Shown here piece after piece: positions 2,696 to 3,894 of a stretch of DNA of 5,403 bases. The stretch covers positions 1 through 5,403 of the IMG/VR virus record IMGVR_UViG_2554235304_000010; one strand, given 5' to 3'. The notes under the pieces were generated by a model. It saw nothing but the letters and a program-made list of their open reading frames with translations, was not told the DNA's origin and did not search any database. How positions within the stretch are numbered: the first letter of the stretch is position 1; every line of letters starts with the position of its first letter. This DNA comes from a virus (taxonomy: Duplodnaviria > Heunggongvirae > Uroviricota > Caudoviricetes). A program made the translations under genes and the position numbers.

Positions 2696-3187
2696 ATGGA
2701 TCAAAAACAGATTGAAGAAATTGTACGCAGCGTGATGGCGTCAATGGGACAAGCGGCCCCCGCGCCGTCAGAAGCAAAATGCGCCACTACCACCTGTGCA
2801 GCACCGGTGACCTCGGAAAGCTGCGCGCTGGATTTAGGTTCCGCAGAAGCAAAAGCGTGGATTGGCGTTGAAAACCCGCATCGCGCAGACGTATTAACAG
2901 AACTGCGCCGCAGCACCGTGGCTCGCGTCTGTACCGGTCGTGCTGGTCCGCGTCCGCGTACCCAGGCGTTGCTGCGTTTCCTGGCCGATCACTCTCGTTC
3001 GAAAGACACCGTACTCAAAGAAGTGCCGGAAGAGTGGGTGAAAGCGCAGGGCTTGCTGGAAGTCCGCTCTGAAATTAGCGACAAAAATCTCTATCTGACT
3101 CGCCCGGATATGGGCCGCCGCCTGTGTGCAGAGGCTGTTGAAGCGCTGAAAGCGCAGTGTGTAACTTCGCGTTTTTTTCTGGGCTAA
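2696..3187 (+). pseudogene. eutC: Ethanolamine ammonia-lyase small (light) subunit EutC, 3'-truncated; native sequence ends near 3164 and is followed by 7 foreign codons and a stop
   Basis: GGAG at 2682-2685 precedes ATG 2696. The translation [22 protein letters not shown]...[16 protein letters not shown] matches EutC from memory up to about residue 156, then reads TSRFFLG and stops, whereas full-length EutC is about 295 aa. The N-terminal microcompartment-targeting peptide is retained; the catalytic C-terminal half is absent. Confidence 0.88.
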
Positions 3188-3195
3188 TTGGCGCA

Positions 3196-3237
3196 CAATT
3201 CTGGGCGGAGAGAGCGCAACCAAAAAGCCCAGAATTG
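3196..3237. repeat. Hairpin-forming inverted repeat (11-bp stem CAATTCTGGGC / GCCCAGAATTG, 20-nt loop) in the eutC-prophage junction
   Basis: Direct reading: 3196-3206 caattctgggc pairs with 3227-3237 gcccagaattg. A related partial copy ctgggctaattgg sits at 3178-3190. Function unknown. Confidence 0.5.
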
Positions 3238-3396
3238 GACGCTAAATTATTAGTCTCATGCTGATGATTTACCTTCAAAAAATCAGCTCATATCCTGCAC
3301 AGTTCAACGCATTGCGTTGTAAATCGGTGTCCTGGTCATTTGTTGATGCGCGTACATAGCCTATAAACATGGTAGATCACCCTGACAAAAGCAGGA

Positions 3397-3894
3397 ATGA
3401 TGCCATTTGCTCGTTATTTCTGCATTTTCATAAACGTTGGTTTGGGAGAAGGTGCTCCAGCTATTGGCGTTCCGTTCTTCTGGCCGTCCGCCGCAATGCC
3501 AGATACCGTAATCGAAAGCTGGTCCGGCATGGTGTTTTTGAAGTTCAACGGCGCGAAATTCTCTGCCACTGATTACCCTGTGCTGGCAAAAGTGTTTCCT
3601 TCGCTGGTATTACCTGAAGCCCGCGGTGACTTCATTCGTATCTGGGATGATGGGCGAGGGGCGGACAGTGGGCGAGCATTATTAAGCTGGCAGGCAGCAA
3701 CATCTTTATCGCAATTTGGTGGTAATTATCCAGAAGGGTCCGGCCATGCGATTGCTGATTACGATGGAATATCAGCACACGAGCCAGGTTTCTCTCGATT
3801 TCAGTACACCAGTAACTCAGTAGGAGATGGTGTTAATTTTGTTGCTGTCAGACCGCGAAATATTGCATTTAACTTTCTGGTGAGGGCTAAATAA
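3397..3894 (+). CDS. Alternative (currently promoterless) tail-fibre C-terminal receptor-binding segment, lambda Stf / T4 gp12-like tip; real coding begins at the crossover site near 3437 and the upstream ATG at 3397 is flank read-through
   Basis: Translation ...GLGEGAPAIGVPFFWPSAAMPDTV...FLKFNGAKFSATDYPVLAKVFPSLVLPEARGDF...GRALLSWQ...NIAFNFLVRAK has the C-terminal pattern of side tail-fibre tips (lambda Stf ends ...NIAFNYIVRLA, from memory). There is no upstream constant part on this strand; the stop TAA overlaps the following tfa start (TAATG). Confidence 0.7.
   Translation: MMPFARYFCIFINVGLGEGAPAIGVPFFWPSAAMPDTVIESWSGMVFLKFNGAKFSATDYPVLAKVFPSLVLPEARGDFIRIWDDGRGADSGRALLSWQAATSLSQFGGNYPEGSGHAIADYDGISAHEPGFSRFQYTSNSVGDGVNFVAVRPRNIAFNFLVRAK
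3425..3450. other. Left crossover site of a Hin/Gin/Cin/Pin-family DNA-invertase system (hix/gix-like), core dinucleotide TT at 3437-3438
   Basis: TTTTCATAAACG TT GGTTTGGGAGAA: both half-sites resemble the recalled hix/gix half-site consensus TTATCAAAAACC / GGTTTTTGATAA. The inner 14 bp TTGGTTTGGGAGAA (3437-3450) is a perfect inverted repeat of 5334-5347. Confidence 0.6.

Follow-up and report, generated by a model that had tools for sequence, protein, structure and literature searches.

In phage Mu, the G segment and its invertase gene (order S-G-gin-com-mom-attR) belong to a transposable phage, in which the constant part of the fibre gene lies outside the invertible segment and two pairs of tip and chaperone genes lie inside it. 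The invertase gene of Mu starts just beyond the distal crossover site and reads toward the right end of the phage. The P segment of e14 also holds fibre-tip and chaperone genes, and it is inverted not only by PinE but, at the same 16-mer, by PinQ of the Qin prophage and PinR of the Rac prophage (PMC12529663), while deletion of pinE in K-12 leaves the segment locked (PMC12529663). The cis-acting elements can be compared with those of the Salmonella Hin system. Specifically, the Hin enhancer is a 65-bp element with a 15-bp Fis core at each end and ATTTA and TAATG tracts in between, it is situated within the part of the invertase gene that encodes the N-terminus (PMC3798978, PMC2724282), ~100 bp away from hix (PMC3798978, PMC2724282), and for the wild-type enzymes of this invertase family such an enhancer is required in cis (PMC2724282).

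The locus described here is a variant of these known invertible fibre switches. The window analysed, 5,403 bp in length, is an entire draft contig of the classic EPEC strain E. coli O127:H6 E2348/69, and in it the crossover sites, a predicted enhancer and both tip/chaperone pairs are intact. We consider it likely that this is a 'client' switch, which takes its invertase from elsewhere in the cell, with the enzyme of a P2-like prophage remnant as the candidate. A functional invertase is absent in cis, and in this respect the locus departs from the Gin, Cin, Pin and Hin switches with their adjacent functional invertases.

The host gene involved is eutC, whose 5′ part (2696-3159, plus strand) is interrupted by the prophage, so that the open reading frame runs into phage DNA and stops at 3187. 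The truncation of eutC at a prophage junction, proposed in the initial annotation, is confirmed by sequence comparison, where the last base of the match to intact eutC is 3162. In the reference genome the inserted element is a complete Mu-like prophage of 35.7 kb, past the opposite end of which the 3′ part of eutC is found (NC_011601 2715507-2715944). According to the reference annotation, the prophage encodes a repressor, a Mu-type transposase, a MuB-like ATPase and Mor, as well as lysis, head, tail and baseplate functions. The 'Mu transposase C-terminal domain-containing protein' and the 'AAA family ATPase' are placed (by annotation only) at the opposite end, near repressor/ner-like genes. 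Unlike the cryptic e14, the element that hosts this switch is an apparently complete prophage.

Near its right end the prophage carries a pair of 26-bp crossover sites that face in opposite directions and agree in their inner halves and in the AA/TT core. The left site (3425-3450) consists of an outer half (3425-3436), the core TT (3437-3438) and an inner half (3439-3450), and reads TTCTCCCAAACC AA CGTTTATGAAAA on the minus strand; the right site (5334-5359) consists of an inner half (5334-5345), the core AA (5346-5347) and an outer half (5348-5359), and reads TTCTCCCAAACC AA GGTTTTCGAGAG. Crossover sites had been expected near 3437 and 5347, in agreement with the position of these cores. The length of 26 bp and the 2-bp core are shared with the hix sites of Salmonella (PMC3798978, PMC2724282), and both sites contain the 16-mer TTGGTTTGGGAGAAGG, which is identical to the crossover 16-mer of the e14 P segment (PMC12529663).

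As in e14, fibre-tip and chaperone genes are located inside the segment, which comprises two alternative fibre C-termini with their chaperones in opposed orientations, the constant N-terminus being outside. In the orientation of the window the expressed tip (4878-5333, minus strand, from gene calls) has a Gp53-like C-terminal domain and is served by a tail-fibre assembly chaperone of 148 aa (4459-4905, minus strand). The silent tip (3451-3894, plus strand) is part of an ORF (3397-3894) that begins outside the segment and has no constant N-terminus, and it is followed by its own chaperone of 197 aa (3894-4487, plus strand); both chaperone ORFs match Pfam Caudo_TAP. The constant part of the fibre gene (5360-5403, minus strand) extends past the window, is 100% identical to the reference, and lies there upstream of the YmfQ-like and baseplate genes. 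The fibre ORF is full-length both ways, with 253 aa in the window orientation and 249 aa in the reference orientation, and its N-terminus is identical in the two.

To the initial annotation, eutC and the left crossover site were separated by only about 270 bp of non-coding-looking DNA. This spacer (3160-3450) is not empty, and is made up of compact cis-acting elements: from left to right, the right end of the prophage, a minus-strand invertase stub, the upstream region of the stub and the left crossover site. The right end, attR (3160-3259), begins 5′-TGTAACTTCGCG, and the identical first nucleotide of this terminus adjoins five different host sequences or genes. It is present in 94 E. coli genomes at many sites, and in 74 of them the homology ends after 86-100 nt. 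The left end of the prophage closes in ...CCCCACA, so that the termini are of the TG/CA type; given such termini, 4 bp of eutC (AGTG) are duplicated at both junctions, against the 5 bp expected of a Mu-like end. TTCTGGGY, a putative transposase-binding motif, occurs in three copies at each prophage end; in attR two copies are direct (3177-3184, 3199-3206) and one is inverted (3227-3234). In sibling prophages that share the baseplate backbone, a non-invertible fibre module adjoins the same 86-100-nt end and no invertase is present, and therefore the phage end lacks nothing here. The suggestion that the prophage had been truncated at this point does not hold for an intact right end with five host contexts, repeats shared with the left end and a duplicated AGTG; truncation at eutC is ruled out by both ends, the target duplication, the sibling phages and the Mu-type transposition genes.

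The second element of the spacer is the 5′ stub of a serine invertase gene of the Gin/Pin family (3260-3370, minus strand, with its ATG at 3370), which is recognized by translation, alignments, RefSeq and Pfam. More specifically, the minus strand from 3370 to 3278 translates to MFIGYVRASTNDQDTDLQRNALNCAGYELIF*, including the catalytic-serine motif YVRAST. Because the T-run at 3277-3282 has one T too many, codon 31 is followed by a stop (3275-3277); with one T fewer the reading lengthens to ...IFEGKSS. Homology to the intact genes in pro483 and strain CS18F reaches ~3260, or about codon 37, and in an alignment of 168 nt running from the crossover site through the stub, 90% of positions are shared with an intact invertase gene and the DNA upstream of it. 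The intervening promoter/leader region (3371-3424, minus strand) is near-identical to the DNA upstream of intact invertase genes, and the whole stretch from crossover site to stub matches ~3,700 E. coli records, with E-values as low as 4e-92. RefSeq lists the stub as the pseudogene E2348C_RS29190, which in other genomes is named 'recombinase family protein'. On its 37 residues the Pfam Resolvase profile scores E = 2.5e-4 and 21.6 bits, slightly below the cut-off of 23.3 bits, and is covered at positions 2-38 of 145; there is no HTH, and the catalytic domain is incomplete. The stub no longer codes for an enzyme, and in the ORF list the interval from eutC to the left crossover site has no complete invertase ORF. 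The initial annotation was thus right that no working invertase gene is found there, and mistaken that neither strand encodes anything like an invertase N-terminus: about 37 codons of one are present on the minus strand, aligned to an intact gene and known to RefSeq as a pseudogene. It had allowed for an overlooked remnant within 3165-3436, and the stub, by its translation and alignments, is such a remnant.

At the DNA level, the crossover site, the upstream region and the 5′ end of the invertase gene are most closely related to those of P2-like prophages (pro483, CS18F), with 83-91% identity. Unlike here, these have a full invertase of 197-199 aa, located between the cassette and, in pro483, the tail sheath gene or, in CS18F, a phage tail gene. 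The layout, too, is that of Mu in its main features: the phage is transposable, its segment encloses two tip/chaperone pairs but not the constant part of the fibre gene, and an invertase start lies just beyond the distal site. The crossover core and the start codon are 67.5 bp apart in the orphan switch, in Mu and in the P2-like element alike. Unlike in Mu, just ~37 invertase codons are left, com and mom are missing and the stub is fused straight to the phage's terminal 100 bp. The cassette DNA is nearest to P2-like and e14-like cassettes, and the backbone and end sequences differ from those of Mu as well.

An invertase gene could in principle be sought on the other side of the fibre gene, an unusual layout that the initial annotation had put forward. 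Rightward of the segment, however, the annotation passes from the fibre constant part through the YmfQ-like, baseplate, tape-measure, sheath, head, terminase and early genes to the other eutC junction, with no recombinase other than the Mu-type transposase. Since that transposase is also the only recombinase annotated in the whole 35.7-kb prophage of the reference genome, the probability of a far-side invertase is close to nil.

Despite the loss of its enzyme, the switch is not locked. Four complete genomes of the E2348/69 lineage are identical to the window save for a flipped 3439-5345, with the exchange falling within the shared core and the outer-half base 3436 remaining with the flank. Orientation was counted in 11 assemblies with an identical eutC junction and an identical stub, four of which have the window orientation and seven the reference orientation (one of these seven has a SNP within its left crossover site); three further complete genomes are also in the reference orientation. 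The insertion in eutC is, by sequence comparison, one event common to all assemblies compared, and therefore the flips postdate it. It could be objected that all four finished, reference-quality genomes share one orientation, and that the other is an assembly error, the product of rare RecA-mediated exchange between short inverted repeats, or an old polymorphism in a switch that is in fact locked, as the initial annotation had considered. This is very improbable. The inverted repeats share just 14 identical nt, which is too short for assembler confusion or for efficient homologous recombination, and the window orientation is found in a 4.96-Mb contig, a 37-kb contig and two contigs of 4.4 and 5.4 kb from drafts or metagenomes, all with unchanged flanks and stub. 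Two sister drafts even have the same 5,403-bp contig in opposite orientations, and the single shared insertion makes the flips the later events. The contrasting orientations of these assemblies indicate a switch that flips between E2348/69 sublines, by exchange at the core dinucleotide.

With the cis invertase dead and both orientations occurring, the invertase protein must come from elsewhere in the cell, which sets this locus apart from an e14 with intact pinE, where trans supply is not obligatory. A supply in trans by another prophage, already raised in the initial annotation, fits the two orientations and fits the gene content of the genome. Indeed, the recommended check for serine-invertase homologs and their distance turned up an intact gene of the Gin family 228 kb away, in a defective P2-like prophage remnant beside yfiB (E2348C_RS15490, NC_011601 2979534-2980112). 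It encodes 192 aa with both domains complete (Pfam Resolvase, E = 2.7e-50; HTH_7, E = 9e-13), and aligns to Mu Gin with 74% identity over 181 aa without gaps. Its own crossover sites, TTCTCCCAAACC AA CGTTTAAGAAAA and ...GGGAAAGAAGAA, are near-identical to those of the orphan switch (TTCTCCCAAACC AA CGTTTATGAAAA and ...GGTTTTCGAGAG), with the same inner half and core. The P2-like invertase is accordingly the best candidate donor, and most likely drives the flipping, a parallel to the inversion of e14 by invertases of other prophages (PMC12529663).

The candidate is not the only invertase-like locus in these cells. In sensitive searches, each E2348/69 chromosome has four places that match the invertase 5′ region and three that match the invertase body; positions are assigned to the stub and the P2-like gene, and two further loci remain, either of which could be the actual donor. 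Dependence on trans supply would then be correct with a different enzyme, or with several acting redundantly, much as three different Pin enzymes invert one segment in K-12 (PMC12529663). The cassette of the P2-like element itself is found in one orientation in four of four complete genomes (the outer half of its far site is degenerate), and this uniformity could also speak for another donor. Against it stand the intact state of the P2-like gene, its Gin-family membership and cognate sites that match those of the orphan almost exactly, so that we regard a different donor as rather unlikely. In NC_011601, the lambdoid prophages at torT (nleB2/nleC/nleD) and potB contain no invertase, the icd region has neither e14 nor an invertase, and none is found at ycjM-ycjT, at the ttcA/Rac site or at ssrA with the EspC island; of the regions inspected by position, the P2-like remnant alone has one. 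A further 16 genomes carry this phage lineage; strain tcmA_3 lacks any additional homologue of the invertase 5′ region, and its switch is predicted to be locked.

An enzyme provided in trans would probably still depend on an enhancer in cis, and the stub retains a region that is homologous to the Fis-bound enhancer of Hin and lies at the same distance from the crossover site. This predicted recombinational enhancer (3286-3349, gene nt 22-85) is assigned by homology and spacing, with putative 15-bp Fis cores at 3335-3349 (GCATCAACAAATGAC) and 3286-3300 (GTGCAGGATATGAGC) and ATTTA and CAATG tracts between them. The resemblance to Hin includes an element of 64-65 bp with G...C 15-mers at its ends and ATTTA/(T/C)AATG in between, ~100 bp from one site and within the first ~30 invertase codons; unlike hin, which is inside its segment and controls a promoter, the predicted element is outside the segment and in a pseudogene. 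The G/C anchor positions of the predicted Fis sites are conserved in eight of eight remnants and in Mu gin, although site I is otherwise a poor match to the textbook Fis consensus, and the stub, compared with the enhancer region of Mu gin, has just 73% identity (47/64 nt). When the 15-mer TCAACAAATGACCAG was sought with each species represented by a single genome, the matches listed were mostly chance occurrences.

Four independent truncations of invertase genes in E. coli end near one point, shortly beyond the predicted enhancer, and they are joined to unrelated partners (a phage end, a tfa fragment, a DUF262 gene and IS26). It is possible, and we advance it only tentatively, that the stub is a stand-alone enhancer module under selective maintenance, and that invertase genes near fibre cassettes have repeatedly been reduced to a crossover site and an enhancer. 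The stub could also be debris, its ~110 nt being set by a hot spot of breakage or recombination at the palindrome CTGATTTTTGAAGATAAAATCAG (gene nt 86-108) or by a module-swap junction, in which case the enhancer may be unnecessary at this switch. In the present phage and in the A34 type the breakpoints are indeed 1-2 nt from the 3′ edge of this palindrome, and that of IS26 in TC24 is another 3 nt beyond; selection for the enhancer alone would allow breakpoints anywhere downstream of nt 85. Moreover, the sibling phages demonstrate that the entire fibre region can be swapped, and the stub may mark the joint of a borrowed cassette. On the other hand, the four truncations differ in mechanism as well as in partner, and 5′ invertase fragments shorter than ~107 nt are missing from an evenly spaced sample of 60 records. 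The switch still flips, wild-type invertases of this family require the enhancer in cis (PMC2724282), and a full deletion of pinE leaves the e14 segment locked (PMC12529663). Debris is, on these grounds, a doubtful explanation.

For the 'client' switch the following course may be proposed. Invertase dimers, supplied in trans, would bind both crossover sites, Fis would bind the enhancer inside the stub, and exchange at the core dinucleotide would swap the tip and chaperone that are joined to the constant fibre N-terminus. We infer the binding of Fis to the stub, the identity of the working invertase and the selection that would keep the stub.

If this is correct, an invertible fibre switch can remain active without its own enzyme as long as the cis elements survive, as seen in a much-used reference strain of a pathogen, and the behaviour of one prophage then depends on the remnant of another. 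Sublines of E2348/69 differ at this locus, and assemblies and comparisons of mutants should expect either orientation. A rule follows for annotating genomes and for surveys of invertons: where a pseudogene of ~110 nt labelled 'recombinase, partial' stands beside a fibre cassette, it is probably a working enhancer and not junk. The same consideration may account for the locked e14 segment of K-12 after a clean deletion of pinE, even though PinQ and PinR are able to flip it. Should the more tentative idea of a selectively maintained enhancer module be true, 'client' switches would arise whose flipping is set by the pool of invertases from other prophages in the same cell, and the host range of the phage, or the surface-protection phenotype of the cell, would follow this co-resident pool. 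A viable, transposable phage lineage (20 genomes, with different insertion sites) would then have outsourced the control of its host-range switch to co-resident prophages.

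The draft contig ASZS01000069.1 (GCA_000442085.2; 5,403 bp) is identical to the window over its entire length, and four complete E2348/69-lineage genomes (E. coli O127:H6) match it at 100% identity outside the invertible segment. Positions 1-66 are the terminal part of an ISEc13 element that interrupts eutA; to their right lie the remainder of eutA, eutB (1314-2675) and a 5′ fragment of eutC, whose homology to intact eutC ends at 3162, with phage DNA throughout to the right of that point. ISEc13 is a member of the IS4 family whose end here is similar to the IS50 inside end (…AGATCTGATCAAGAGACAG), and the eut operon of E2348/69 is disrupted twice, by this element in eutA and by the prophage in eutC.

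The invertible tail-fibre segment of this prophage, here called the orphan switch, is bounded by a left 26-bp site (TTCTCCCAAACC-AA-CGTTTATGAAAA; 3450->3425, minus strand) and a right one (TTCTCCCAAACC-AA-GGTTTTCGAGAG; 5334-5359). The window is what an exact inversion of the segment in the four complete genomes would give; after flipping, the alignment shows ‘mismatches’ at 3436 and 5348 alone, and these first outer-half bases stay with their own flanks. A fibre of full length is encoded in both orientations (253 or 249 aa), with the constant N-terminus unchanged and the matching chaperone gene behind it. The start of a silent-tip ORF (3397-3894, plus strand) falls to the left of the segment, within the region upstream of the invertase gene, and the ORF has no constant N-terminus; RefSeq lists its equivalent as a separate ‘gp53-like domain-containing protein’, and the silent cassette has probably given rise to this stand-alone ORF as an artefact of annotation.

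The orphaned segment reported in the initial annotation is a real feature and was correctly located, but it was partly misread, since its spacer holds an invertase remnant, the prophage is complete and the segment is still inverting. As stated there, no working invertase lies between the left site and eutC. The claim that neither strand resembles an invertase N-terminus was wrong, because the spacer contains the 5′ remnant of a Gin/Pin-family serine invertase gene (the stub; 3370->3260, minus strand), recognizable by its reading frame, by DNA homology and by its RefSeq annotation as a partial pseudogene. Specifically, the minus strand from 3370 to 3278 translates as MFIGYVRASTNDQDTDLQRNALNCAGYELIF and then reaches a stop; the run at 3277-3282 has one T more than in intact genes, and without this T the reading goes on as ...IFEGKSS. 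An intact invertase gene (encoding 199 aa) with its upstream region, from a P2-like prophage of strain CS18F, aligns at 90% identity over 168 nt with the stretch that runs from the crossover site to the end of the stub. The counterparts in several sequenced phages align with this stretch at 83-90% identity, and homology to intact invertase genes stops at ~3260 (gene nt ~108).

The truncated EutC′ fusion protein occurs only with this insertion and served to retrieve independent assemblies; every retrieved contig has the identical eutC junction and the identical stub. Four of these assemblies, including contigs of 4.96 Mb and 37 kb, have the window orientation and seven the reference orientation (one with a SNP in the left crossover site), which is also that of three further complete genomes, and the same 5,403-bp contig occurs in opposite orientations in two sister drafts. 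Because the insertion was one event common to all assemblies, the flips must be later than the insertion and have occurred without a cis-encoded enzyme, so that the proposal of a locked switch was not borne out. In the assembly with the SNP, GCA_049977505.1 (L018), the left-site inner half reads GGTCTGGGAGAA instead of GGTTTGGGAGAA (equivalent to window 3439-3450), a point change that could affect flipping there. The draft contig ends 56 bp beyond the right crossover site (window 5347-5403) and the sister assembly has the flipped contig; a break directly past the crossover site is what reads of mixed orientation would produce.

Nor is the prophage truncated at this point, as had been considered. 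Its right end starts at 3160 (5′-TGTAACTTCGCG) in a precise junction with host DNA, and the identical first base adjoins five unrelated host sequences in five genomes; this type of end is present in 94 of 5,426 complete E. coli genomes, at many insertion sites. The motif TTCTGGGY occurs at 3177, at 3199 and, inverted, at 3227, with three copies at the other prophage end too. The eutC bases AGTG are found at both junctions (window 3155-3162; comparison sequence L005 ~12940-12950) and, taking TG...CA as phage termini, would give a target duplication of 4 bp, where 5 bp would be typical of Mu. The prophage measures ~35.7 kb in the reference genome (roughly NC_011601 2715945-2751671): from the far side, past which the rest of eutC is found, there are a repressor-like gene, a small HTH gene, a Mu-type transposase, an AAA ATPase and Mor, then lysis, terminase, portal, head, sheath, tape-measure and baseplate genes, and finally the fibre gene with the invertible segment.

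In strains Ec55 and STEC313, sibling prophages that share this baseplate backbone have ordinary, non-invertible fibre modules that directly abut the same 86-100-nt end, with no invertase or mom-like genes between module and end; 3160-3259 is therefore the entire right end, and the region from the YmfQ-like gene to the end is a swappable fibre module. These sibling modules are quite different, with a 2-kb tail-fibre-domain protein in one (L148 7001-9581) and a fibre plus a DUF4376 protein in the other (L149 7001-10742). In strain OkiPb01676, beside pphA (L002 6001-6339), the same right end, stub and cassette, 94% identical, are joined to a different tail/baseplate set (DUF2612, spike protein and HMG-box protein). 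The fibre region is highly mosaic in this phage family.

A search for invertase homologues, suggested with the initial annotation, points to a possible source of the enzyme. Sensitive searches detected in each E2348/69 chromosome four places matching the invertase 5′ region and three matching the invertase body; one is an intact gene (NC_011601 2979534-2980112; 192 aa) 228 kb from the orphan switch, within a ~10-kb P2-like tail-gene remnant adjoining yfiB, and the other two invertase-like loci were not found in ~0.47 Mb of targeted regions of the chromosome. The encoded protein has complete Resolvase and HTH_7 domains and is 74% identical to Mu Gin. The sites of the P2-like element have an inner half and core identical to those of the orphan, and the invertase-proximal sites of the two differ at 1 of 26 positions. 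On these sequence matches, the remnant's invertase is a well-matched candidate donor, in line with the earlier option of an enzyme supplied in trans by another prophage. In the P2-like remnant (L024 42243-45112 = NC_011601 2977243-2980112) the cassette has lost the fibre constant part, in whose place lies an integrase fragment, its far site has a degenerate outer half (GGGAAAGAAGAA), and its orientation is identical in all four complete genomes; with an intact invertase, an invertible cassette and no fibre constant part, the remnant is a mirror image of the orphan.

Action of an invertase on the segment of another prophage has been shown by experiment in K-12, where PinQ and PinR, of the Qin and Rac prophages, invert the e14 P segment at TTGGTTTGGGAGAAGG (PMC12529663). 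The same 16-mer is present at window 3437-3452. Deletion of pinE is reported to leave the e14 P segment locked despite the presence of PinQ and PinR (PMC12529663); we infer, in a reading not made by those authors, that this locking reflects loss of the enhancer inside pinE.

[quoted passage not shown] A homologous stretch lies within the stub (window 3286-3349, gene nt 22-85; GCATCAACAAATGAC-...ATTTA...CAATG...-GTGCAGGATATGAGC), the centre of its proximal predicted Fis core being 95.5 bp from the crossover core. In the orphan, in Mu and in the P2-like element of NC_011601 the start codon is 67.5 bp away from the crossover core. Both predicted Fis cores retain their G and C anchor bases in Mu gin and in each of the eight stubs compared. 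By analogy with Hin, Fis may bind the stub at 3286-3349.

Approximately 79% of complete E. coli genomes match a query of an intact invertase gene and its flanks, and in an evenly spaced sample (n=60 records) all short, 5′-only matches end at gene nt 107-119. Four independent truncations, in different E. coli prophages and with unrelated partners, end at gene nt ~107-123: the partner is the Mu-type end in this lineage (20 genomes, assorted insertion sites), a tail-fibre-assembly fragment of A34 type, a DUF262 gene in an e14-like element, and, for a gin-like gene beside trkG, the terminal repeat of IS26 (truncated loci at L019 5003-5107, L004 5975-6097, L145/L146 2558-2680 and L147 2537-2647). 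All four keep the predicted enhancer and a further 20-40 nt. This recurrent endpoint would follow from selection for the cis element together with erosion of dead DNA, or alternatively from a palindrome, CTGATTTTTGAAGATAAAATCAG (nt 86-108), that acts as a breakage hot spot.

The orphan belongs to the Gin/Pin type of fibre switch and is part of a complete Mu-like prophage. Of its own invertase gene only a stub with a predicted enhancer is left, joined directly to the end of the phage. Inversion continues in this lineage and requires an invertase from another locus. The proposed mechanism is in keeping with known biology, namely the interchange of Din-family invertases and a Fis enhancer that acts in cis; the most interesting lead of the analysis is that truncated genes have repeatedly kept the predicted enhancer.
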